Of a stretch of 64,000 nucleotides of DNA, positions 6,080-36,349 are shown in pieces. Below the pieces are notes generated by a model. It ran no database searches. It saw nothing but the letters and a program-made list of their open reading frames with translations, and was not told the DNA's origin. Within the stretch, counting starts at the first letter, position 1, and each line of letters opens with the position of its first letter. The stretch is from contig JBAZMW010000004.1 of the NCBI GenBank assembly GCA_041649575.1, positions 21,687 to 85,686 on the forward strand, read 5' to 3'. This DNA comes from Patescibacteria group bacterium (GTDB taxonomy: Bacteria; Patescibacteriota; Patescibacteriia; 2-01-FULL-39-33). The translations under genes and the position numbers were made by a program.

Positions 6080-6152
6080 GGGCCAGTAGCTCAGGGGTTA
6101 GAGCACCGCTCTTATAAAGCGGGGGTCGGTGGTTCAAATCCACCCTGGCCTA
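6080..6152 (+). tRNA. tRNA-Ile2-like with anticodon UAU (decodes AUA)
   Basis: 73-nt cloverleaf GGGCCAG/CTGGCCT; anticodon stem CCGCT/AGCGG, loop CUUAUAA; T-loop TTCAAAT; body resembles bacterial ileX but has T34 instead of C34. Confidence 0.7.
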
Positions 6153-6315
6153 CAAAAACAAATTGGAATTAAAAGTTAATTGTTTTTAAAAAAGTAAAGA
6201 CTGACATTAAAGTGGATTTGAAGGGCAGTAATGAGCCAAATCCCGCCACCGGCGGGATGAAGGCGAGACGCCCGCCAAATCCGAGCAAGCGCAGGATTTG
6301 GCGCTGCCCCGGACC

Positions 6316-6335
6316 CAAATCCACCCTGGCCTACA
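6316..6335 (+). repeat. 20-bp direct repeat of the 3' end of tRNA-Ile(UAU) (copy of 6135..6154)
   Basis: CAAATCCACCCTGGCCTACA occurs at both 6135-6154 and 6316-6335, flanking a 161-bp insert. Confidence 0.8.
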
Positions 6336-13759: not shown

Positions 13760-13785
13760 GCTCTCGTAGTGAAATGGATATCACG
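13760..13785 (+). repeat. duplicated 5' half of tRNA-Arg (acceptor + D-arm), 25/26 identical to 13812-13837
   Basis: GCTCTCGTAGTGAAATGGATATCACG matches GCCCTCGTAGTGAAATGGATATCACG. Confidence 0.75.
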
Positions 13786-13811
13786 ACAGACTCCTGCCCG
13801 CCACTGCCTAC

Positions 13812-13883
13812 GCCCTCGTAGTGAAATGGATATCACGCTTGGCTTCGGACCAAGAATTTTGGGTTCGAATCCTGACGAGGGCG
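13812..13883 (+). tRNA. tRNA-Arg (anticodon UCG)
   Basis: Acceptor GCCCTCG/CGAGGGC, D-arm GTGA-AATGGATA-TCAC, anticodon arm CTTGG-CTTCGGA-CCAAG, T-arm TTGGG-TTCGAAT-CCTGA. Confidence 0.75.
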
Positions 13884-13916
13884 TTGGCGATGGCAGGCGG
13901 GTCGGATCTGTTATTG

Positions 13917-13940
13917 GGGGTTCGAATCCTGACGAGGGCG
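13917..13940 (+). repeat. duplicated 3' portion of tRNA-Arg (T-arm + acceptor 3' strand)
   Basis: GGGTTCGAATCCTGACGAGGGCGTT is identical to 13861-13885; the intervening spacers (13786-13811 and 13884-13916) are partly reverse-complementary. Confidence 0.7.
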
Positions 13941-14061
13941 TTACCGCGTGGGATGTTAGCTTCCGCCTCGGCTCGCTTTGTTCGCCAAGGCGAGACAGGC
14001 AGCTAGGCTACGGATCAGACTGGAAGAGTATGATAAACAATTTACATAAAACGAGTAATAT

Positions 14062-23928: not shown

Positions 23929-24367
23929 TTAGACCTGGGCGGCCTTGCGAAAACGAAGTTGCTCCACGGTGATGCCCAGAGACCTGGCTTCGGCAGCATC
24001 GCTCTTCTGCCTGCCGAGGCTGTTTGCGGCTTTGCGGGCCTTGGCCTTGGCCACGTTGACGGTTGTTCGTTGACTGGTCAAAAACGGCCGATAGTCATAC
24101 TTGCTGCGCTGCCCGCCGGAACGTAACGAACCCGCTCCGCCTTTAGCGCTGGAGGATTGACCGACCCCCCCCCTGCTGATGTTTGGGGACAGACGTCGAG
24201 GCGTTGGTCGCTGAAGCATGTGCTCGATTGCCCATGTATCTCTTGTGGCGACTTTTTCCGTCGTCGCCGGAACGGTCACCTTTCCCTTTCCTGGCCATGG
24301 CTGTTCCTTTCCGCACGGAGTGCTCCAAACAAGACAAACAGAATGTACATGCAAAAAAACTTATCAC
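23929..24367 (-). pseudogene. small Lys/Arg/Gly-rich protein gene (KGG-repeat stress-protein-like?) interrupted by a frameshift at a G10 homopolymer
   Basis: RBS AGGAA followed by ATG at 24300 (MARKGKGDRSGDDGK ...); the frame ends 15 codons past the (G)10 run at 24167-24176 and a protein-like frame (...SAKGGAGSLRSGGQRSKYDY...) continues at -1; about 60% GC. Confidence 0.35.
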
Positions 24368-24485
24368 AACAGATAAAAATAGTCAATTTGATTTATCTCG
24401 CTAACCCGTTTAATTCCAGTTCTTTTCTATAACAAAAATAATCACCAAAAAGGTGATTATTTTTTGCTAAGCGGGTAACGGGAAT

Positions 24486-24633
24486 TACGCGTCGCTCCCT
24501 GCCTACCGGTAGGCAGGCGCTCCTTGCCCTGGGTTGGCAGCAGACCTGCCACCGGCAGGTCTGCTGACGTTCGACCTCATCACTTCGTGATTTGTCTCAC
24601 TGCCAACCCGTTCGATTCCCGTTAATTTCTGTT
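24486..24633 (-). repeat. 148-bp GC-rich hairpin-rich insert between tRNA-Gly and a duplicated copy of its 3' end
   Basis: 17-bp direct repeats AAGCGGGTAACGGGAAT at 24469-24485 and 24634-24650; insert holds palindromes CCTGCCTACCGGTAGGCAGG, CAGCAGACCTGCC-acc-GGCAGGTCTGCTG and GGGTTGGCAG/CTGCCAACCC. Confidence 0.65.
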
Positions 24634-24634
24634 A

Positions 24635-24709
24635 AGCGGGTAACGGGAATCGAACCCGTATTTCCACCTTGGAAGGGTGGCATAATAACCATTATACTAT
24701 ACCCGCGCT
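24635..24709 (-). tRNA. tRNA-Gly (anticodon UCC)
   Basis: Minus strand: GCGGGTA ... CCACC-CTTCCAA-GGTGG ... ACGGGTTCGATTCCCGT-TACCCGC-T. Confidence 0.8.
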
Positions 24710-24723
24710 TATTTGCTTCTTGG

Positions 24724-24794
24724 TCGGGGTGCGGAGAATTGAACTCCGGCTACATGCACCCCATGCATGCGTACTACCGTTATACTACACCCCG
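24724..24794 (-). tRNA. tRNA-Pro (anticodon GGG)
   Basis: Minus strand: CGGGGTG-TA-GTATAACGGTAGTAC-G-CATGC-ATGGGGT-GCATG-TAGC-CGGAGTTCAATTCTCCG-CACCCCG-A. Confidence 0.8.
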
Positions 24795-24837
24795 TAAAAC
24801 TAATTTATTGTATACTTAATAAAAAATGTCTCGTTAT

Positions 24838-24880
24838 GTCGGGGTGACAGGACTTGAACCTGCGACCTCTTACTCCTTCA
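24838..24880 (-). pseudogene. tRNA-like 3' fragment (T-arm + acceptor 3' strand), 3' half of an outer tRNA-like gene enclosing tRNA-Pro(UGG)
   Basis: Minus strand: TGAAGGAGTAAGAGGTC-GCAGGTTCAAGTCCTGT-CACCCCG-ACA; no D or anticodon arm immediately upstream. Confidence 0.55.
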
Positions 24881-24896
24881 CCCTGTTAAATAATTG

Positions 24897-24970
24897 TCGG
24901 AGTAGTGGGATTTGAACCCACGATCTCCTGCTCCCAAAGCAGGCGCGATAGCCAGCTTCGCTATACTCCG
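24897..24970 (-). tRNA. tRNA-Pro (anticodon UGG)
   Basis: Minus strand: CGGAGTA-TA-GCGAAGCTGGCTATCGC-G-CCTGC-TTTGGGA-GCAGG-AGATC-GTGGGTTCAAATCCCAC-TACTCCG-A. Confidence 0.8.
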
Positions 24971-24979
24971 GTAATTTAA

Positions 24980-25021
24980 CAGGGCGAGAAGCAAGCGCTC
25001 TAGCCAACTGAGCTACACCCC
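24980..25021 (-). pseudogene. tRNA-like 5' half (acceptor + D-arm + 5' strand of a long helix), 5' half of the outer tRNA-like gene
   Basis: Minus strand: GGGGTGT-AG-CTCAGTTGGCTAGAGC-G-CTTGCTTCTCG-CCCTG; acceptor GGGGTGT is complementary to CACCCC at 24843-24848. Confidence 0.55.
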
Positions 25022-25088
25022 GTATTAAAACAAACAATCAACAACGATGAGCGCATTGTCAATTGCAAATCGTTAACTGTTTTGAGTA

Positions 25089-25160
25089 TGCCGAGGGCGA
25101 GAATCGGACTCGCGACACAAAGATTTTCAGTCTTCTGCTCTACCACTGAGCTACCTCGGC
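25089..25160 (-). tRNA. tRNA-Phe (anticodon GAA)
   Basis: Minus strand: GCCGAGG-TA-GCTCAGTGGTAGAGC-A-GAAGA-CTGAAAA-TCTTT-GTGTC-GCGAGTCCGATTCTCGC-CCTCGGC-A. Confidence 0.85.
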
Positions 25161-25235
25161 TCTCACCTCGCCGTAGCCGATAGGCGAAAGCGGGTTAAAC
25201 TTTTATCAGTCCGCCTTCGCTAAAGCTACGGCGGA

Positions 25236-25300
25236 CACTGTGCGCATACCTGGATTTGAAGTCTGGACCTTCCCGATATATCGGGACGCTCTAATTAAAT
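25236..25300 (-). pseudogene. partial tRNA-Ile-like copy (D-arm end, variant anticodon arm, T-arm, acceptor 3' strand)
   Basis: Minus strand: TTAGAGCG-TCCCGATATATCGGGA-AGGTC-CAGACTTCAAATCCAGG-TATGCGC-A; matches the 3' two-thirds of tRNA-Ile(GAU) except the anticodon arm. Confidence 0.55.
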
Positions 25301-25527
25301 CCTCTAGATACTTTCGCGACTTCATTCTTTTTAAACAACTCTCTCTTCTGATTGCCTCTTTTTTGTCCTCGTATTCTTCATGATAGACTAATTTTTAAGG
25401 CTTTTTATTGCTGGTGTACCGGCCTGTAGAGCTATTATGCTGGCGAATTCTCTTTTCCAAATCAGAAGAGTAACCAATATAGTAGCTACCATCTCTTTCG
25501 CTTTGCAAGATATAAAGGCAATGCATG

Positions 25528-25601
25528 TGCGCATACCTGGATTTGAACCAGGGACCTCGTCATTATCAGTGACGCGCTCTAACCAACTGAGCTATATGCG
25601 C
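25528..25601 (-). tRNA. tRNA-Ile (anticodon GAU)
   Basis: Minus strand: GCGCATA-TA-GCTCAGTTGGTTAGAGC-G-CGTCA-CTGATAA-TGACG-AGGTC-CCTGGTTCAAATCCAGG-TATGCGC-A. Confidence 0.85.
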
Positions 25602-25604
25602 TTA

Positions 25605-25731
25605 ATTTTAAACCTGGGACCTTCCCGATATATCGGGACGCTCTACCAACTTTTCAATCCCGACTTGTCGGGGGGAGCCCCGCCCGACTGAACGGCGTTC
25701 AGCCGTTCGGGCGGGTATATGCGCTTAAATT
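25605..25731 (-). pseudogene. degenerate tRNA-Ile-like copy carrying a 66-nt GC-rich palindromic insert in the D-arm
   Basis: Minus strand: GCGCATATA + CCCGCCCGAACGGCTGAACGCCGTTCAGTCGGGCGGGG... + TTGGTAGAGCG + TCCCGATATATCGGGA + AGGTCCCAGG; shares the variant anticodon arm with 25236-25300. Confidence 0.5.
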
Positions 25732-25841
25732 TACTTAAATAATATAACAAAAAAAATTGATTTTGGCAAGATGAAAAAAATAGGCCTGACGACGGCCTAC
25801 AATGCCTGTGGAGCTTCCCAAGACTGGGGCTCTGTCATGTA

Positions 25842-26234
25842 TCAGAAAGGTACTGGCTGGCACCTGGATTGTTCCAGGCCTTCTTTTAAGGCGCTGGCCA
25901 GTTCATCTCTACTACCCCAATAGCAGACCGCATCCAGCCCATTTGGCTCTGTCAATGGAGCACGAGTCACCCCAATTAAGAACGGCCTGGGCCGACAACG
26001 CCGAAAATGTTTGACAACTTCTTCCGCGCCAGGATGTTGAAAGTCGACTATCAGGATTTGCGGCCGCATTACGCCTTGTAATTCCTTGCTGTTGACGACA
26101 CTGGTGATGGTGACCTGGGGATTGCTTCCATACCAATTAACACCAAGATCGTCAATGGCCCAGTCTTTGGCGCCTCGCCAGAGCTCCAAAGCCGATTGGG
26201 TATTGACGGCCAAAAAGGTTACCAGTGTGGGCAT
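25842..26234 (-). CDS. hypothetical protein (130 aa), GC-rich, own promoter; weak paralog of the next gene
   Basis: RBS GGGAGG; promoter TTGTCA-17-TAATAA; palindrome TTAACCAAGCGGTTAA between the -10 and the RBS; shares an ILIVDF/ILFIDF block with 26378..26893. Confidence 0.45.
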   Translation of the reverse strand: MPTLVTFLAVNTQSALELWRGAKDWAIDDLGVNWYGSNPQVTITSVVNSKELQGVMRPQILIVDFQHPGAEEVVKHFRRCRPRPFLIGVTRAPLTEPNGLDAVCYWGSRDELASALKEGLEQSRCQPVPF

Positions 26235-26377
26235 GGTTAGATCCTCCCTTAAAGAACAGCTCGACCAAATTAACCGCTTGGTTAATTATTAACATGCCAT
26301 AAAAAATTTGACAAGAAAAAGCCGTGCGCGAGGCAACGGCTCAAATCGCTCCCAATCTGTCGGAAGGGAGCGGCGTA

Positions 26378-26893
26378 CTAGAAGGGAATAATGTCGCTGA
26401 TGGCGTCTTCCAATCCTTGACTGGTCCTGGCGCAGAGGTCGAATTCCTCACAAACCATCGGGTCGTTGGGATAATGATCGTGATAAGGAACGACTACAAT
26501 ATGGAGCGCCGGGTTGTTGCGCAAGAAAGGCGGCAACGCCTCATCGGCCTCTGTGTGATCGTTACAAATCACGACGATGAACGGTTCGAACTCGACTAAG
26601 CGCCAAAGCTGCGAGTCACGTATGTCAGCAAACATGACCCTAAAATCGCCGTAACGATAACGACGGGTGCCAAGCCACAGCTCTTTCATCTGCGTCGGCT
26701 CAAAATCGATGAACAGAATGCGTGTGCCGTTTCCTTCAAGCACCTCGACTTCGTACTCCATTGACTCAACTGGTGGCGGGATCAAACGCTCCTGCGGCGG
26801 TGGCGCTACTGGTTCCTCCTCCCGAGTCTCCAGCCAATCCAAAAAGTCTGCGCCACATTCTGCCAGGGTTGCCGGCGCCGTTGACATGGCCAT
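26378..26893 (-). CDS. hypothetical protein (171 aa), GC-rich
   Basis: AAGGAG RBS 8 nt upstream of ATG; lies downstream of the 16S terminator; no recognisable domain. Confidence 0.45.
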   Translation of the reverse strand: MAMSTAPATLAECGADFLDWLETREEEPVAPPPQERLIPPPVESMEYEVEVLEGNGTRILFIDFEPTQMKELWLGTRRYRYGDFRVMFADIRDSQLWRLVEFEPFIVVICNDHTEADEALPPFLRNNPALHIVVVPYHDHYPNDPMVCEEFDLCARTSQGLEDAISDIIPF

Positions 26894-26960
26894 TCTCCTT
26901 CTGTTGCATACTAAAGTGCTTTATAAAAGAATTTAAAACAAAATACCAAAAAAAGCAAAT

Positions 26961-26985
26961 ACAAAAACCCCGCCCAAAGGCGGGG
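26961..26985 (-). terminator. intrinsic terminator downstream of 16S rRNA
   Basis: Minus strand: CCCCGCC-tttg-GGCGGGGTTTTTGT. Confidence 0.6.
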
Positions 26986-27098
26986 CAGTTGTTGTGACAA
27001 CTAAAAAGCGACAAAAAGTTTGTAAGCCCTCTTCCCGCCTAATGGCGGGACGACCTATCATAGATGTGACTTTTAAAAAGTCACATCAATTTCTCCCT

Positions 27099-28577
<1,479 letters not shown>

Positions 28578-28869
28578 AAAAAATTTGCAACTAGATTACG
28601 GCCAGTTGCCAACCGTATGAAACATTGCTTCGCTAGAAAGCGAAGATGCTTTGTTCAAAGAAAAATAACTTGGGCTTACGCTTTTTGTCACTTTTTAGTT
28701 GTCAAATTGCCTTTTTCCTCCGCTTTCAAGCGGAAAGAAAAAACAGAGGGATCCGATTTGGCGAACTCTCGTTTCAGGCGAGAATTCTGTCAGATACCAC
28801 TGTTTTCCCTCAAAATCTAAATTTTAGGAATTTTTTAAGAATGTTTTGTGCTTATTAGTCTGCCCTATT

Positions 28870-30638: not shown

Positions 30639-31064
30639 TTAGGCGCTGGGAGTGTCTGCTGAAGCGGCTTCTGCCGGCGCGGCTGTTTCGGCTTTCTCTT
30701 GAGCCTGCTTGGCGGCTTCGGCTTCGGCTTTCTTGGCGGCGTCGATAGTGGCTTTCTCTTGAGCCTTTTGAGCAGCTAGGGCCGCCTGTTTTTTCTTGCC
30801 GGGCTGCGACTTGGAGGCTCTGACTTTCTTGTCTTTGATAATCCCTTGGCTGACCAGTAGATTGTGAACCGTCGAGGTAGCTTGAGCTCCTTGCTTTAGC
30901 CAATACAAAATTCTGTCATTTTTTATCTGACTTACTTTGGTCTTAGGGTTATAAGAACCCAGGTTTTCTAAAAATTTACCCCAGGGATCACGGGTTTTTT
31001 CGGTGACAATCAGCCGATAAAGCGGCTGTTTTTTCTTGCCAACGCGAGATAGTCTGATTGATAA
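30639..31064 (-). CDS. rpsP: 30S ribosomal protein S16 with Ala/Lys-rich C-terminal extension
   Basis: MLSIRLSRVGKKKQPLYRLIV is the S16 signature. Confidence 0.85.
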   Translation of the reverse strand, partial: LSIRLSRVGKKKQPLYRLIVTEKTRDPWGKFLENLGSYNPKTKVSQIKNDRILYWLKQGAQATSTVHNLLVSQGIIKDKKVRASKSQPGKKKQAALAAQKAQEKATIDAAKKAEAEAAKQAQEKAETAAPAEAASADTPSA

Positions 31065-31288
31065 CATTATTTGTTGCTGATTAATTCTTAATTTCTGAGC
31101 ATTGAACGGTAAAGTTATGCTACTATATTTTACAAAAAAAGTCAATTAACCTTATTGGATTAATATATTTTATAACCAGCTTTTACAAAAAAAGGGCCAG
31201 CGATACGAGATCACTGTCCCTTGGAAAATCGCGGCCGAAGGCCAAGGATTCAATCCAATGGCCAAGCGGCCGAAAACCGAAGTCCAGA

Positions 31289-32251
31289 CTACCCGAGGCA
31301 GAACACCGACGCCGAATAGTCGTCGCTGGCATACGACAGATAGTCGGTGTAGTCGAAGTTCGCATAGGAATCGTAGGCGAGGAAGCGGAGCGAGTAGGAC
31401 TGCCACTGAAGAGCCGGGCAGCGCACTATTGGTGTCTTGGCGTCTCGGCAGAGCTCCTTGGCATAGGCCATGTAAGCCACTGCCGTGTCCAAGCCGCCGC
31501 CCAAGAGCATCCATTCGGGAATCTGGGCGGACAGTTCATGCCCGACGAAGGTCTCGCGACAAGCGTCGACGCTGTAACCGCCGAAAGGCAGAAGCGTGAC
31601 GCCGACAACCGGTTCTTTGGCCAAGGCGGCGAGCAGACACTCGTGCCGACTGCCGGCTACGATGCTGACCTCGCCGGCCAAGTCGGTTTCACGGTAGTTC
31701 GTGAACTTCCTGCCCTCGGCCTCGAAGGCTTCCTCATAAGCGCTCCTCACCCCGTCGACAAAAAGCTTCAAGGTGGCGCCGTAGCCACCTTTGTCCTCCG
31801 GCAGAATCGTGCCCGCTGGCAGAACAGTCGGCAGCCAAATGCCTTTGACGGCATTGGCCGTGCGAGGATCGCCCGCCAGCCTGGTGATAGTGGCCTTGGC
31901 TCGTACTTCGAATTCCTCGGCCGACGGCAAGCTGAGCGCCTCGGCTTTGACTCGCAGTCCGATGGCCAGATGCCGACGGACGCGCTCGAGGATCTCGCCG
32001 TAGTTGATCGAGGGTTGGTTGACGTAATACGCGCCAGCGTCGCAGAACGCAGCTTTGAGTCCGGGAAACGGAATGAAGCGGCTGTTCTTGTCGAACAGCT
32101 TACGGACGGTCTCCTTGATCTCCGCGGTCATTTCGTGACGCAGCAGCGCCTTGACGACATTGACGCCGCCAAGCTGGTTGCCAAGCGCCACCCAGTGGGT
32201 ATGTGGCAGGTCGTCCAGTGTTTCCAGTTGATCAATGTTAAAGTCCTTCAT
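31289..32251 (-). CDS. hypothetical protein D (320 aa) of GC-rich island
   Basis: RBS AAAGGAG; strong promoter TTGACA-17-TATAAT at 32363..32335; about 60% GC; no recognisable domain. Confidence 0.5.
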   Translation of the reverse strand: MKDFNIDQLETLDDLPHTHWVALGNQLGGVNVVKALLRHEMTAEIKETVRKLFDKNSRFIPFPGLKAAFCDAGAYYVNQPSINYGEILERVRRHLAIGLRVKAEALSLPSAEEFEVRAKATITRLAGDPRTANAVKGIWLPTVLPAGTILPEDKGGYGATLKLFVDGVRSAYEEAFEAEGRKFTNYRETDLAGEVSIVAGSRHECLLAALAKEPVVGVTLLPFGGYSVDACRETFVGHELSAQIPEWMLLGGGLDTAVAYMAYAKELCRDAKTPIVRCPALQWQSYSLRFLAYDSYANFDYTDYLSYASDDYSASVFCLG

Positions 32252-32334
32252 CTTGCGCTCCTTTCAGCCCATGGCCGAAATGGCTTTTCCCCTACCCGAG
32301 GATTGGGAACAGTCCTACGCAGGACCATCAGACT

Positions 32335-32363
32335 ATTATACTAAATAAAAAATAATCTGTCAA
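32335..32363 (-). promoter_or_regulatory. consensus sigma70 promoter (TTGACA-17-TATAAT) on minus strand
   Basis: Minus strand: TTGACAgattattttttatttagTATAAT in the AT-rich spacer upstream of gene D. Confidence 0.6.
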
Positions 32364-32520
32364 TACTAACAAATTATTTAAAGTTAAATAAAAACTTCCT
32401 CATCTGTCCGGCCAAGCTTCTTGAATGAGATAGAAACTATCTCAAACAAGAAGAAGAGAGAGTTTGGCCGGACGAATGAAGAAGCTTTAAAAGTATTCCT
32501 CAAAACTTGTAAAAAAGATT

Positions 32521-32569
32521 TGCAAGTTTAGTTGGAAGGAGAAGCTGACAAACCACATCAGCTTCTCCC
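32521..32569. repeat. island repeat, short copy 3
   Basis: TGCAAGTTTAGTTGGAAGGAGAAGCTGA-caaaccaca-TCAGCTTCTCC: 11-bp perfect hairpin plus the CCAGTTGGAAGGAG-like core. Confidence 0.6.
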
Positions 32570-32593
32570 AAAACCATCTACCGATCAAGGCCG

Positions 32594-33451
32594 CTAGGCC
32601 TTGGCGATGACGGCGCGAGTTGCCTCAACCGCCGCCACGACGTCGGCCAGCATCATGCGCTGACCGCGGGGACTGCCGGCGATGCCCGCGTGCCCGCCGG
32701 CCGCCTCGCCCCAAAGCCCCTGCACGATCTCTCGTGCCGAGACTCCGGGGATCGGGTCGGCGATAGACACTGTCACCGCACCGGTGACTGTGTTGAAGGC
32801 GACAACAGCTTTCGCCAAGTCGCCTTCCGGGTCGACGTACAGATGGCTGACAAACGTGTCCGCCACCCGCACTGCCACCCCGCCGCCAGCCTCGACGAAC
32901 GATTGCGCATTCAGCGCGACCTCCGCCGAGCGGAACGCCTCGCCCGCCGCGAGAAGTTCCGGGTCGTCAGCGCAAATGCGCTCAACGACCCTGACGGCCT
33001 CCATCACCTGCTCGGTGACTTCGGCCGCGCTGCCGTCGCGCGGGGGCAGGCAGCGGTGACCGTTGCTCCACGCCCAGAAAGCGTAGAGCCGGACGATGTC
33101 GGCTGGCTCGGCGCCGGCTTGGCCTAGCTTGTGCGGACCGTTGAGGTCCACAAAAGCTGCCAGGAGCCAGAATCCCGGCGTCTCGGGCTTGCGACCGAGA
33201 ACGGCCGCACAGCCGCCGACGGAATCGAGATCAAGGTGGGAAAGTCCCACCGCCTCGACTTCACCAGCCGCGCCGTTGTCGGCGAGGCAGGGGGCGGGGT
33301 TGCCCGCCCGCGGCCCGTGATGGGCCAGGGTTGCGACGGACCCGGCGACACACTCGTCGCCGAATTCCGCCTCAACCGAAGCGGTCAGGCCGAAGGGGGC
33401 GAGGACGGCGGCCAATGCGGCCGCATGGTTTGAAATAAAAAACTTCGTCAT
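32594..33451 (-). CDS. hypothetical protein C (285 aa), about 68% GC; faint DHH/DHHA1-like motifs (HLDLDSVGG ... AAGGHAGIAGSP)
   Basis: RBS AGGAGA 7 nt upstream of ATG; longest frame in the region; the motif resemblance is weak and unverified. Confidence 0.45.
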   Translation of the reverse strand: MTKFFISNHAAALAAVLAPFGLTASVEAEFGDECVAGSVATLAHHGPRAGNPAPCLADNGAAGEVEAVGLSHLDLDSVGGCAAVLGRKPETPGFWLLAAFVDLNGPHKLGQAGAEPADIVRLYAFWAWSNGHRCLPPRDGSAAEVTEQVMEAVRVVERICADDPELLAAGEAFRSAEVALNAQSFVEAGGGVAVRVADTFVSHLYVDPEGDLAKAVVAFNTVTGAVTVSIADPIPGVSAREIVQGLWGEAAGGHAGIAGSPRGQRMMLADVVAAVEATRAVIAKA

Positions 33452-33560
33452 GGCTTATCTCCTCTCTCGGAGTTTCAGCGCGCCACGCGCTGTGCCTCTC
33501 TCTGGTTTATCAAACCCTGCAAGCGAGAGACAAACTGGCAACTCCGCGCCGACAACCGGT

Positions 33561-33724
33561 GCAGAGTTTTTTCCTCAAGCCCCGCAAACTCACATTGTTT
33601 GCGAAGCCAGTTGGAAGGAGGAGACAGAAAAACCACTCTGACTCCTCCGGATAACCTTGTTTGCGTTTGTAACGAGGCCGCCGCCTCCGATTGTTTGACC
33701 TCTAACAATCGTAAAGGAGTGTTC
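33561..33724. repeat. island repeat, long copy 1 (164 nt, multi-hairpin)
   Basis: About 96% identical to 34422-34585; contains the TGCGAAGCCAGTTGGAAGGAGGAG core plus hairpins GGAGGAGACAGA/TCTGACTCCTCC, GCAAAC/GTTTGC and CGATTGTT/AACAATCG. Confidence 0.75.
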
Positions 33725-33762
33725 AGATTAAGGCCTAACACACAAGGTCTTTCTGGCGTGAC

Positions 33763-34333
33763 CTACTCGGACAGCGTGATGATCAGGTCTTTGACCTGAT
33801 CATCACGCTCAGACCAGACGGCGTTGGCTGGCTTCTGCCACCACCGCTTCTTCGGTGCGCCCCATTCGGCGGCGCATTCAGCGAAGTGGCTGCAATCCCC
33901 CCCCGAATCCGCGCAACAGAGCGCGTAATACGCGGCTAGCGCTCGGCGTTCGGCCGCGATACCAGAGGAGGAGCAGCAGAAGGCAGCGACGTCACCCGCT
34001 ACCTTTTTCGCCCGGGCGAGTTGCTCCGGAGAACTTACATTCTCCAGATAACCGCGGGCCCACTCTTCAACATCCGCGATGTCGCACATCGCGGCATGCT
34101 GCGCTACGATCCTTCTGGAAACGCGCACAGCCCACTTATTCGCTAGCTCCTTGGCTAGCGAATAAGAGGCGAGGCAAATGATTTCGTAGCTTGAAAATTT
34201 CCACGAAATCAGAGCATCCACGTCCTCCCTCCTAAACTCATTGCCCGCCCCATACCAGCGGCGGGCCACTTCTCTTTCGCATTTAGGAAAGCTCCTGAGA
34301 GCTTCCCTCAGGGTTCTGTACCTTTTCAAGTTC
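33763..34333 (-). CDS. hypothetical protein B (190 aa) of GC-rich island
   Basis: RBS GGAAAGGAGAGAGAG-ATG; the longer upstream frame is an artefact of running into repeat copy 2. Confidence 0.5.
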
Positions 34334-34421
34334 ATCTCTCTCTCCTTTCCGGATGTGGCCGAGATGTGGCCGGTCCCCTCGGAAACTACCATATATCCAA
34401 AACTCCGCACCGACCATCGGC

Positions 34422-34585
34422 GCAGAGTTTTTTCCTCAGGCCCCGCAAACTCACATTGTTTGCGAAGCCAGTTGGAAGGAGGAGACAGAAAAACCACTCT
34501 GACTCCTCCAAATAACCTTGTTTGCGTTTGTAATGAGGCCGCCGCCTCCGACTGTTTGACCTCTAACAATCGTAAAGGAGTGTTC
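34422..34585. repeat. island repeat, long copy 2
   Basis: Near-identical to 33561-33724. Confidence 0.75.
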
Positions 34586-34717
34586 TAATTAAGCTCTTGC
34601 GAGCCGGCCTAACACACAAGGCCGTTTGCCCATGATTTTACGCGGATGGCTTCTGCCCTTGACACGGGCCAAGGACTTTACCGCAACCGCCGAAGCGGGC
34701 TGTGAGGACGCCGAAGG

Positions 34718-35206
34718 TTACTTGGCTTTCGGCATCCCCGGCAGCTCCTGGAGCTGTCGGATGAAGGGGCCGACGATGTCGGCCACCTCCGAACGGAAGC
34801 ACGTTTGTGCTTCCATCGCGCACTCGCAGTCACCAACGGCGATTGCGAATGGAGGAAGGGGAAGTTCCACCGCCTCTTCCGGCAGTGAAACTTCCACCTG
34901 CAGAGGATATTCTCCCCCACAAATGTCTTCTGCCAATACCTGAATATGATCCAGGTAACCGCCCACGCTCACGTAGCGGCGAAACTCCGCCGCCACACTC
35001 GACACGCCCACCGAATATGAAACGGCGAACGTGCCCGACCGGGAGGATAGGCTAACCTCCATCCCGGCCTTCGTAAGAATGACGTACCCGCCATCATTAC
35101 GACCCACCTTCCACCCCGCTGCTACTGCAGCGGAGATGGGAATATTCCCTTCCCGCGGCCAGTTCGACCGCAGAAAAGACTTAACCCCTTCAGAATAGAA
35201 ACTCAT
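34718..35206 (-). CDS. hypothetical protein A (162 aa) of GC-rich island
   Basis: RBS AAAGGAGATAAGTT-ATG; no recognisable domain. Confidence 0.5.
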   Translation of the reverse strand: MSFYSEGVKSFLRSNWPREGNIPISAAVAAGWKVGRNDGGYVILTKAGMEVSLSSRSGTFAVSYSVGVSSVAAEFRRYVSVGGYLDHIQVLAEDICGGEYPLQVEVSLPEEAVELPLPPFAIAVGDCECAMEAQTCFRSEVADIVGPFIRQLQELPGMPKAK

Positions 35207-35404
35207 AACTTATCTCCTTTCACAGAGATCTCGGCCTGCCACAGGCCGTGTCCGCGAGGATCGACAATCCTCTTTTTTCGTCTCATGACGGCGGACAAAT
35301 TACTGCCAGTACCGCACAATGCGGCGCTGGTTTTTTCTATGCTTACCAGCCGCTGACCCAAGTCAGCTGCTAGGAATTTCCTCAGACTTCACGGACAACA
35401 GGCC

Positions 35405-35450
35405 TGCGAAGTCAGTTGGAAGGAGAAGCCGAGACTCGCCCGGCTTCTCC
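35405..35450. repeat. island repeat, short copy 4
   Basis: TGCGAAGTCAGTTGGAAGGAGAAGCCG-agactcgcc-CGGCTTCTCC. Confidence 0.6.
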
Positions 35451-35547
35451 AAAATCAATCATGAATAAATATTTAATTTATTTATCTCTTAATTTTTTAT
35501 TCAGTTGTCAAAATACTTCTTGTCTTAGCTTCTCACCATATGCTCCC

Positions 35548-35624
35548 GTAGCCCGAAGCGCCTTGTTTCTTATAACTCGGGATTGCCGCGGTCGCCCGCC
35601 TCTGGCGGACTCCCTCGCAATGAC
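35548..35624. mobile_element. intergenic copy of the MITE-like element (degenerate 5' end)
   Basis: CGGGATTGCCGCGGTCGCCCGCCTCTGGCGGACTCCCTCGCAATGACA matches the 3' halves of the cca and polA copies. Confidence 0.6.
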
Positions 35625-36349
35625 AGTTACGAAAGGCGTTTTACTAATCAAGACGGTTCTTCCAACCAACGGGTGGTTAATCTGTTGATTGGAAATGTCT
35701 GTCTCGAATAGATAGACATTTGGCAAAGGAGTTGCGATCCGAGAGGCTGACGCTAACAAGCATGCGGCGCCAGACCTCGAGCCGGACAGCTATCCAACAA
35801 CCGTCACTCTAACGGTGGTTTGTTGCCCTATGAGTGATATTTAGCGAGGCGAGGATTTCTCTCTTCGATAGTCCTGGCTTCGCCAAACATTTTAAGGTGC
35901 TTGAGTTTAAAGTGCTGTTCCCAACTCTCTCTTTGGGAAGGCCGGGTTCAGAAGTGACAAGCTCTTCCGAGGCCCGGCTCTCCCGCCCGATCTAGAAAGT
36001 TTCAAAAAACTCTCAACCGGGCGGAGAGAGCTTCGAGGTGCTTCCTTTTTCTATTGGTCGCCGCCCTCTCTCCTTGGCGGCTTCCAAATCCAGTAAGGAA
36101 GCAATTGACTTTTTATTTAATGTTCTCTGGTCGGCTATCTTTTTCCTGTTTTCAGCTTACAAACCCATTATATCATATATAACAAATATTGTCAAGCATA
36201 TATGACTAAAAATTTAGAATTTATTATTATTTTCCTAAATTTATTAAAATATATTATCTAATTTATAATACTATTTTGTCACAAAAATTTGACATTTAAA
36301 TATTATGGGTGTATAATGAAAGTATCTATTTAATAAATCAACAAAGAAT

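Follow-up and report, generated by a model that had tools for sequence, protein, structure and literature searches.

A probable relic of a tRNA-linked GIY-YIG nuclease cassette at the tRNA-Ile(GAU) gene of a Patescibacteria group bacterium

Introduction

Among the nearest known systems to the locus described here is that of phage T4, where SegB, a free-standing GIY-YIG homing endonuclease, is encoded in the phage tRNA cluster (PMC2330249) and drives segmental amplification of the tRNA region (PMC13096335). A 2006 survey of GIY-YIG proteins distinguished "stand-alone prokaryotic Slx1-family" members, for which neither a function nor a linkage to tRNA genes was recorded (PMC1564403). Genomic islands and prophages also reside in tRNA genes, with partial tRNA copies at attL or attR and preservation of tRNA function (PMC9897764). 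The present work concerns a 64,000-nt stretch of the genome of a Patescibacteria group bacterium (assembly GCA_041649575.1, contig JBAZMW010000004.1, positions 21,687 to 85,686; the whole stretch is hereafter called the window). Here, a functional tRNA-Ile(GAU) gene is bracketed by broken copies of itself, probably because a selfish GIY-YIG nuclease gene, now inactivated, lies directly behind it. There is little doubt that the locus is the relic of a tRNA-linked GIY-YIG cassette; on balance, we favor the view that it is a decayed copy of a selfish cassette of this type that is widespread.

As with SegB, a small GIY-YIG nuclease gene is found between or behind tRNA genes and is inherited with the neighboring tRNA region. 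Unlike SegB, which is a larger phage protein with a DNA-binding part, the cassette protein is a bare Slx1/UPF0213 core of about 80 amino acids encoded on cellular chromosomes, and the nuclease activity of its family is predicted from sequence. SegB, for its part, has no described partial tRNA copies bearing hairpin-substituted arms. The UPF0213 proteins BH0048 (PDB 1zg2) and EF2693 (PDB 1ywl) belong to the same sequence family as the cassette nuclease and share its minimal single domain. Eukaryotic SLX1 differs in being a repair enzyme that needs SLX4 and not a selfish element. The cassette resembles integrated islands and prophages in having one complete and one partial tRNA copy in direct repeat at its ends, but the insert measures only ~250-350 nt and contains no tyrosine or serine recombinase gene; moreover, the breakpoints vary within the D or T arm, the displaced copy is rewritten with hairpins, and upstream 5' copies and arrays occur. 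A looser parallel is offered by the repetitive extragenic palindromic (REP) and REPIN sequences, short GC-rich palindromes tied to a single-domain RAYT nuclease of the HUH/Y1 type and dispersed in hundreds of intergenic copies. There too, GC-rich palindromes flank and co-vary with the gene of a single-domain nuclease, and the form that matters seems to be the hairpin and not the duplex. The likeness is one of analogy only, as the cassette nuclease is of the GIY-YIG and not the HUH/Y1 type and its hairpins do not stray from the tRNA-like copies next to the gene. A full-text search of the literature found no description of this architecture. The combination of a bare Slx1-type domain, many cellular tRNA identities and hairpin-substituted partial copies is present in none of the nearest known systems and appears to be undescribed.

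Results

Partial tRNA-Ile copies on either side of a functional gene

Coordinates are positions in the window; the locus is described on the minus strand, from 25733 down to 25165, and its features are on that strand unless stated otherwise. In this direction, a copy of the leader and 5' acceptor strand is followed by a 66-nt insert, a D-arm remnant, the palindrome TCCCGATATATCGGGA, a variable loop with T-stem sequence, and then the leader and the complete tRNA-Ile(GAU) gene. Continuing 3', one finds 240 nt of coding sequence, TTAGAGCG, a second TCCCGATATATCGGGA, a variable loop, a damaged T arm, an acceptor 3' strand, a 68-nt hairpin and tRNA-Phe. The functional tRNA-Ile(GAU) gene (25527-25601) was called by ARAGORN and scores 77 bits against Rfam RF00005. 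It has the native anticodon arm CGTCA-CTGATAA-TGACG and does not encode CCA.

The initial annotation had placed this gene between two incomplete Ile-like copies. All of the pieces are present, and an alignment of the three Ile-related copies gave the result expected of tRNA-Ile-derived fragments that bracket a functional gene. The upstream pseudo-copy begins with the duplicated leader TAAATTTAA and the 5' acceptor strand with positions 8-9, GCGCATATA (25716-25733; repeat search and alignment), a segment 94% identical to 25593-25610 in a direct-repeat search. It retains a remnant of the D loop and of the 3' strand of the D stem, TTGGTAGAGCG (25639-25649; alignment of the three copies), as well as the variable loop and the 5' strand of the T stem, AGGTCCCAGGTT (25602-25622; alignment). 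This copy ends within the T loop, with the leader of the real gene directly next to it. The 3' part of the downstream pseudo-copy (25240-25270; repeat search, blastn and alignment) consists of a variable loop, a damaged T arm reading CAGAC where the native gene has CCTGG, the acceptor 3' strand TATGCGC and the discriminator A. The direct-repeat search detected the corresponding duplication of the tRNA 3' end (25239-25270 and 25526-25557, 88% identity). Scattered substitutions are apparent in the T arms of both copies. In addition, a perfect 29-nt direct repeat, GGACCTTCCCGATATATCGGGACGCTCTA (25265-25293 and 25617-25645, no strand assigned; repeat search, 100% identity), covers the 3' strand of the D stem, the hairpin and the start of the variable loop. 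The two repeats enclose 323 nt, made up of the tRNA and the nuclease gene described below.

Neither partial copy (25236-25300 and 25602-25735) matched RF00005 even at E<=10, and an Rfam search at this threshold over 24300-27150 assigned the fragments to no family, tRNA included. The outer fragments were also considered as an intron-containing tRNA, a candidate that was rejected when ARAGORN, allowed introns of up to 400 nt, called none. The earlier description of Ile-like copies with a variant anticodon arm is correct as to their Ile origin and to the replacement of the arm by a palindrome, but the copies are really two truncated halves of the kind typical of the cassette, the upstream one cut in the T arm and the downstream one in the D arm. 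Similarly, the imperfect 68-nt hairpin that separates tRNA-Phe from the downstream pseudo-copy (25165-25232) is present and strongly folded (RNA fold -37.5 kcal/mol, z -4.7), but a link to the system is unsupported, as no counterpart was found in 211 fetched loci.

A GIY-YIG nuclease pseudogene directly behind tRNA-Ile

The 227 nt separating the tRNA from the downstream fragment, anonymous in the initial annotation, are actually a GIY-YIG open reading frame (ORF) with one internal stop. This nuclease pseudogene, of the stand-alone Slx1/UPF0213 type (25287-25526, 80 codons; identified from the ORF translation and Pfam PF01541), has its ATG 1 nt past the discriminator base of tRNA-Ile. Its frame translates as MHCLYILQSERDGSYYIGYSSDLEKRIRQHNSSTGRYTSNKKP*KLVYHEEYEDKKEAIRRESCLKRMKSRKYLEDLIRA and extends across the downstream pseudo-copy as far as 25206. 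Once the stop is taken as Trp, the match to PF01541 has an E-value of 4.5e-18 and a score of 65.8 bits, against a cut-off of 22.6. Homologues are 79-86 amino acids long and 42-66% identical to the window protein. Residues Y5, Y16, G18, R26, H30, N31, E62 and K66 are present, and all of the residues that are invariant in 24 homologues are kept except Trp44 (of KPWKLVY), whose place is taken in the window by an in-frame TAA (25395-25397). Since TAA replaces this invariant Trp codon (TGG -> TAA), the window copy is a pseudogene; judging from its sequence, the gene was killed recently and what remains would be the footprint of a cassette. The protein is a single domain without auxiliary domains. 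A profile of the family matched PDB 1zg2 (E 5.7e-14) and PDB 1ywl (2.8e-12), then eukaryotic SLX1, a structure-specific nuclease (9e-7), the closest solved relatives thus being UPF0213 structures.

The nearest homologue (66% identity; locus L087, L numbers being used here for loci outside the window) ends ...GGAGCG TCCCGATAGTAATCGGGA AGGTCCCAAGTTCGAATCTTGGTATGCGCACAG, which is the Ile-type junction and 3' end of the window. The C-terminal tails of several homologues (LIGASR, LVRTSRA, LVRASRV) correspond to the translated AGAGCG-TCCCGA junction, and in the window the extended nuclease frame overlaps the second copy of the hairpin (..RASRYIG..). Searches of NCBIfam and PADLOC with the nuclease gave nothing significant, leaving a defence-system reading unsupported. 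Phage collections yielded only distant homologues (35-44% identical), and the palindrome motif was found in merely 2 of 2.9 million viral contigs. By these sequence comparisons, the cassette does not seem to be mainly a phage trait.

Hairpins in place of tRNA arms

That both partial copies carry a perfect palindrome in place of the anticodon arm was borne out for each of them. In the upstream copy, TCCCGATATATCGGGA (25623-25638) replaces the 17-nt anticodon arm; the second example lies in the downstream copy (25271-25286). Inspection of the sequence and the repeat search, in which the palindrome has no strand, found it exactly twice in the window, once in each copy of the 29-nt repeat. The window hairpin thus has the form TCCCGAT-AT-ATCGGGA, occurs twice, and is accompanied by two further hairpins in the D arm, making three in the upstream copy. 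Shuffled sequence gave 0.21 matches to the palindrome, even with 3 mismatches allowed, and 0.01 matches to the TCCCGA..TCGGGA pattern, showing that the structure of the locus is not due to chance.

The two D-arm hairpins lie in the 66-nt insert (25650-25715; DNA fold -32.8 kcal/mol, z -5.6), which replaces GCTCAG of the D arm. The initial annotation had its length, GC-richness and palindromic nature right but overlooked CCCCGACAAGTCGGGA (25658-25673), a further hairpin belonging to the class of the anticodon-arm palindrome. The other hairpin of the insert, CCCGCCCGA...TCGGGCGGG, occupies 25679-25715. The arms of this latter hairpin (CCCCGCCCGACTGAAC...GTTCGGGCGGG) recur in a Flavobacteriales metagenome-assembled genome (L041), in which they stand in for the T loop of a pseudo-tRNA directly behind a GIY-YIG ORF, and its exact centre, CAAG, recurs in the pseudo-tRNA-Phe of L120. 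Within the 64-kb window, hairpins of the TCCCGA type are confined to the tRNA-Ile locus, apart from a native helix of the 16S rRNA. The latter, a TCCCGATC..GATCGGGA hairpin in the 16S gene (TCCCGATCTTGTGATCGGGA, 28395-28414), was considered as an insertion and rejected; in the bacterial small-subunit model this segment corresponds to the native V2 helix, and the likeness is a coincidence.

Linkage of nuclease, tRNA genes and hairpins across phyla

A set of loci selected by protein only was gathered with a nuclease profile built from 11 closer sequences. It comprised 80 genome loci from Bacteroidota, Patescibacteria, Omnitrophota, Ignavibacteriota, Zixibacteria, Planctomycetia and others. A tRNA gene on the same strand was found <=200 nt from the nuclease gene in 60 of the 80, many of the remaining loci being cut by contig ends. 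In this set, tRNA genes reach a density of 0.95/kb within 400 nt of the nuclease gene, compared with 0.038/kb elsewhere. The pattern TCCCGA-N4-6-TCGGGA behaves in the same manner (0.64/kb near the nuclease gene vs 0.019/kb elsewhere, a 33-fold difference), with 51 copies near the gene and 5 in the 262 kb lying >400 nt away. In the 250 nt on either side of the nuclease gene, perfect GC-rich hairpins show an 11-fold enrichment, and 51 out of 144 start with TCCCG or CCCCG. About one third of these genomes, found by the nuclease protein alone, have the hairpin in a tRNA context.

A search of metagenomes with the motif in the context GAGCG...AGGTC returned at least 120 stretches, where ~0.3 would be expected by chance (22 fixed bases; a rough estimate that assumes a collection size). 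The nuclease gene was also present in 40 of the 80 stretches loaded. Algoriphagus vanfongensis has the window's exact CCCGATATATCGGG. Cultivated organisms with an intact homologue include A. vanfongensis DSM 17529 (L009), A. winogradskyi DSM 15360 (L049) and Maribellus sediminis (L007). The initial annotation had kept ordinary decay as an explanation for a palindrome that recurs nowhere else; its recurrence in these metagenome contigs and in the protein-selected genomes, in the same tRNA context, indicates that it is not an accident of decay. Throughout, the hairpins are found inside partial tRNA copies, where they substitute usually for the anticodon arm and sometimes for the D stem, D loop or T loop, and 6-17 nt of the tRNA are removed at the substituted arms.

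Two arrangements could be distinguished. In class I, a native tRNA is followed by a trailer of 2-31 nt, the nuclease ORF and a copy starting at tRNA position 8-21; this copy consists of the hairpin, then the native variable loop, T arm and acceptor 3' strand, and the same trailer (L148, L135, L160, L155, L102, L049, L009 and L120). All of these examples apart from L120 show the clean junction AGAGCG + TCCCG-loop-CGGGA + native 3' part + trailer. Class II is the mirror image, with a leader and tRNA positions 1 to ~60 carrying substituted arms, the nuclease ORF, and then the leader and native tRNA; its examples (L070, L071 and L081) are all candidate-phyla loci. In other loci, upstream copies are as a rule cut off in the T stem or T loop. 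In the window, a class I unit is accompanied by an upstream copy such as class II loci have. Going by the sequences of these loci, a cassette is always flanked by a complete tRNA on one side and, on the other, by an incomplete copy in direct repeat that is deficient at its 5' or 3' side. The nuclease ORF starts within a few nt of the tRNA in L040, L057 and L085, and in many homologues the hairpin is just past, or overlaps, the nuclease stop codon.

Hairpin-bearing pseudo-copies in L116, L100, L124 and L093 are called by ARAGORN as tRNAs with odd or four-base anticodons, such as "???(agca)", Cys(gca) in an Ala scaffold or Ile(gat) in a Met-like scaffold. For the pseudo-copy in L093, no tRNA call by Infernal exceeds the gathering score. 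Pseudo-copies of this kind are likely to be a source of mis-annotated tRNA genes.

Stem covariation and hairpin classes

Among 97 distinct hairpins, the seventh stem pair, on which the search pattern placed no constraint, forms a Watson-Crick match in 75 and is represented by four pair types, whereas the eighth is at chance level. The unit can thus be defined as a 7-bp stem with a 2-4-nt loop that is kept as a hairpin or palindrome. The class of hairpin (TCCCGA... vs [T/C]CCCGCC...) follows the clade of the nuclease, subject to an ascertainment caveat. For a palindrome that tracks the nuclease lineage and undergoes compensatory stem changes, the best reading is still the one first suggested, a protein-binding site or a mobile hairpin. 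In L070, both orientations are found in a single pseudo-copy, TCCCGCC-GAT-GGCGGGA and TCCCGCC-ATC-GGCGGGA (2437-2482), which favors an origin of the hairpin at the DNA level. The window's ATATAT loop corresponds to ATGATAT of L093 minus one base, and a T-arm hairpin in L099 bears anticodon-loop sequence. The arm TCCCG-ATGGCAT-CGGGA also occurs in full-length tRNA-Ala(GGC) genes scoring 60-68 bits; a real tRNA can thus accommodate the stem, and the resemblance raises the prospect that this arm may be the historical source of the motif.

A terminator loop in L160 (1545-1990) reads GAAA in one duplicated copy and TTTC in the other. The inverted hairpin centres of L160 and L070 could result from insertion in either orientation or from flip-flop of the palindrome. 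Flip-flop inversion was considered as evidence for a nick-and-unfold process and set aside: some pairs are suggestive (L155/L162; L070; L160), but centres of 2-4 nt are too weak to be used. The palindrome was also considered as a scar of hairpin-capped break repair, similar to P nucleotides, an idea discarded on the grounds that its sequence is conserved whatever the flanking tRNA.

Signs of ongoing change

Two near-identical strains differ at this type of locus. L120 carries tRNA-Phe, the nuclease gene and a pseudo-tRNA-Phe with TCCCGACAAGTCGGGA, while L121 has a single clean tRNA-Phe; the two also differ in the number of pseudo-tRNA-Ile units. In the L120 pseudo-copy, the 5' part differs from the native gene and the 3' 36 nt are identical to it, a sequence pattern that fits recombination, inside the 3' part, of a 5' part and hairpin carried by the cassette. 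The unit forms tandem arrays in L002, L021, L049, L065, L113 and L130, those in L002, L021, L065 and L113 being comparable to the break-induced tandem amplification of tRNA segments by SegB. Older-looking copies with several hairpins are found in L088, L074, L080, L057, L043 and L049.

The nuclease ORF of L120 (2301-2530) contains in-frame TGA where homologues have Gly (..SD[TGA]KRYY[TGA]ST..). This suggests that the organism reads UGA as glycine, in which case the nuclease gene may, from its sequence, be intact.

Other tRNA loci and features of the window

Two further bracketed tRNAs had been noted in the window, and the Arg and Pro(TGG) genes are indeed flanked by fragments. The tRNA-Arg(TCG) gene (13811-13884, plus strand) is nested in an outer Arg-like pseudo-tRNA (region 13760-13941), the 5' part of which (13760-13785) and the 3' part (13918-13941) are joined to the inner gene by the complementary GC-rich arms ACAGACTCCTGCCCGCCACTGCC and GGCGATGGCAGGCGGGTCGGATCTGT. 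This locus has a cloverleaf within a cloverleaf as its minimum-energy fold (z -6.0), and no nuclease gene is present. In the same manner, tRNA-Pro(TGG) (24896-24970, minus strand) is nested between the 5' and 3' parts of a Pro-like pseudo-tRNA (region 24838-25022), and a helix of ~22 bp including CCCTGTTAAAT/ATTTAACAGGG joins the outer parts (fold z -6.7). In the 211 loci, no informative recurrence was seen of the inverted repeats that surround the Arg and Pro genes.

The tRNA-Ile(TAT) and tRNA-Gly(TCC) loci (6154-6334, plus strand, and 24466-24634, minus strand, respectively) have a different organization. Downstream of each gene lies a short AT-rich spacer, followed by an antisense part of the gene's own T arm, by a GC-rich stretch of hairpins totalling 100-130 nt (TCCCGCCACCGGCGGGA; CCTGCCTACCGGTAGGCAGG) and by a direct repeat of the gene's own 3' end; each downstream region folds as one long hairpin. 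As hairpins of these types are also found on the flanks of GIY-YIG genes in loci from candidate phyla, these two regions may be older cassette footprints. The tRNA-Ile gene with anticodon TAT (UAU) itself (6080-6153, plus strand) scores 71 bits in Rfam. Genes for tRNA-Ile(UAU) are uncommon in bacteria, where AUA is usually read by a modified CAU anticodon.

The window forms part of a 132.9-kb metagenome contig (ENA ERZ27247363), and a PilM protein identical to the one encoded there is attributed by NCBI to a Patescibacteria group metagenome-assembled genome. It contains a 16S rRNA gene (27101-28583, minus strand) and no 23S gene. A TCCCGCCTAATGGCGGGA hairpin lies 50 nt past the 16S 3' end (27033-27050). 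Between the 16S gene and the tRNA-Ile locus (region 25842-28583) are two ORFs of 171 and 130 amino acids with no Pfam match on record, and the 171-residue product has no homologue among 5.8 billion proteins. The G+C content rises to 0.55-0.62 at 31000-36000, against a window mean of 0.446, and this stretch may be a foreign segment.

Discussion

The preferred reading of the tRNA-Ile locus, that of a decayed selfish cassette, leads to the following scheme. As it lies immediately behind the tRNA on the same strand, the nuclease gene is probably co-transcribed with it, and in the window cleavage by RNase Z would release an almost leaderless mRNA. The partial tRNA copies would be duplication products formed upon entry of the cassette into a tRNA gene or its recombination there. 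Breaks induced by the nuclease at tRNA genes would stimulate recombination by which empty alleles of the same tRNA acquire the cassette, in a homing-like mode of spread; less often it would move to another tRNA, and it would also be amplified locally to form arrays. Selection would retain one intact tRNA copy, while the incomplete copy would act as a homology arm. This homing-like mechanism is put forward tentatively, the case for it falling slightly short of even. Still more doubtful is any specific role of the hairpin; our best guess is that it might be a cassette-specific cis element, either a structure recognized or cleaved by the Slx1-like nuclease or a "capped" arm that resists cleavage. 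Incidentally, it might also break up the repeat homology that would otherwise delete the cassette.

Several observations weigh against this scheme. Members of the family have no known cleavage activity or target, and a domain of 80 amino acids has no obvious means of reading a specific sequence. Homing of this sort would make the intact neighboring tRNA a target, and its protection is unexplained, as is the conversion of unrelated anticodon stems (Ala, Ile, Val, Met, Phe, Asp) to TCCCG/CGGGA. Some young copies retain native loop nucleotides (TTGCA in L148; TTACA in L157 and L112). The duplication junctions vary, with copies starting from position 8, 10 or 21 and trailer duplications of 2-31 nt, which disfavors a precise transposase-like step. 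The occupied and empty sites of L120 and L121 can be read as the product of insertion or of deletion, and the metagenome set, being selected by motif, cannot gauge the conservation of the fixed hexamers of the stem. No relative of the window locus showing an empty site was found: in a search for an empty or intact allele, the nearest PilM relative was 49% identical, the flanking 171-residue ORF was an orphan and no variant contig turned up. Finally, the other loci of the window with tRNA fragments (Arg, Pro, Gly and Ile-UAU) have no nuclease gene.

One could suppose that the hairpins are autonomous miniature palindromic elements, in the style of REP/REPIN, RPE or mitochondrial GC clusters, with a preference for tRNA-like DNA. 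The GIY-YIG gene would then be the mobilizing enzyme, as in REP-RAYT systems, or a mere neighbor with the same site preference, and the partial copies would be collateral damage. We regard this as fairly unlikely. It would account for the replacement of different arms (anticodon, D and T) with small and variable deletions, for the accumulation of hairpins in the older-looking copies, for the two orientations (GAT and ATC centres) within one pseudo-copy of L070, for the T-arm hairpin of L099 with its anticodon-loop sequence, and for the fact that hairpin class tracks nuclease clade, as REPs track their RAYT. However, such elements should be dispersed, and only the 5 distant copies mentioned above were found; in the window, all TCCCGA-type copies outside the 16S gene belong to the tRNA-Ile locus. 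Furthermore, the borders display no visible target-site duplication or conserved target, and 16 nt is too short for a function of its own. A role of the pseudo-copies at the RNA level, as processing signals, 3' stabilizers of the nuclease mRNA or tRNA mimics with a stable stem-loop, is unlikely as well. The close spacing of tRNA and nuclease ORF in the window and in L040, L057 and L085, the position of many hairpins at the stop codon, and folds far more stable than those of shuffled sequence all speak for it, and stem covariation is what one expects of a selected RNA hairpin. Yet the covariation is equally expected of a DNA hairpin or cruciform, and copies that lack one acceptor strand cannot be substrates of RNase P or RNase Z. 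Nor do the copies pass tRNA scoring at the permissive threshold used, and neither the orientation nor the arm position of the hairpins is constant; in L113, L130 and L009, arrays of upstream copies do not adjoin the 3' end of the ORF.

A complete tRNA accompanied by a partial direct-repeat copy is what integration into tRNA genes classically leaves behind (PMC9897764), and the perfect 29-nt repeat resembles an att core. The fragments might accordingly be taken for attL/attR-type remnants of an integrase-driven prophage or island that entered tRNA-Ile and was later almost wholly deleted. This is very unlikely, and we exclude it on account of size and gene content: the 323 nt between the repeats hold the tRNA and the GIY-YIG gene, no recombinase gene is present in the region, and the same tiny layout is found in >100 unrelated contigs. 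Besides, the repeat spans the D stem, replaced arm and variable loop rather than the 3' end of the gene, and integration does not produce an extra upstream 5' copy. Hardly credible is the notion of ordinary tandem tRNA duplicates decaying at random, with a palindrome arising by chance mutation. Tandem tRNA genes are common and the T arms of both copies do show scattered substitutions, but the 16-mer is identical in the two copies and the exchange of an arm for a hairpin is not a pattern of point decay. The recurrence of the motif across phyla beside the same protein family, together with the compensatory changes in the stem, excludes this explanation.

Returning to the selfish cassette, its implications may extend to the family as a whole. 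It is possible, though we consider it rather improbable in this full form, that stand-alone Slx1-like GIY-YIG proteins are the nucleases of an unrecognized class of tRNA-gene parasites. Such parasites would recognize the structure of tRNA-gene DNA (cloverleaf or hairpin) and not its sequence and could colonize almost any tRNA species across many phyla; they would cause tRNA genes to be duplicated, arrayed and turned over and the arms of pseudo-tRNAs to be rewritten to lineage-specific 7-bp hairpins. If the cassette reading is correct, it would provide a testable role for the stand-alone bacterial Slx1/UPF0213 proteins, whose structures were solved some 20 years ago and for which we found no reported function. 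It would also explain one source of tRNA fragments, pseudo-tRNAs and tandem tRNA arrays that are mislabelled by annotation tools and databases. The findings point to a process, acting on DNA, that swaps arms of the cloverleaf for defined hairpins, and for which we know of no mechanism. For the organism studied here, they suggest that several odd tRNA loci in a small candidate-phyla genome have one shared cause.

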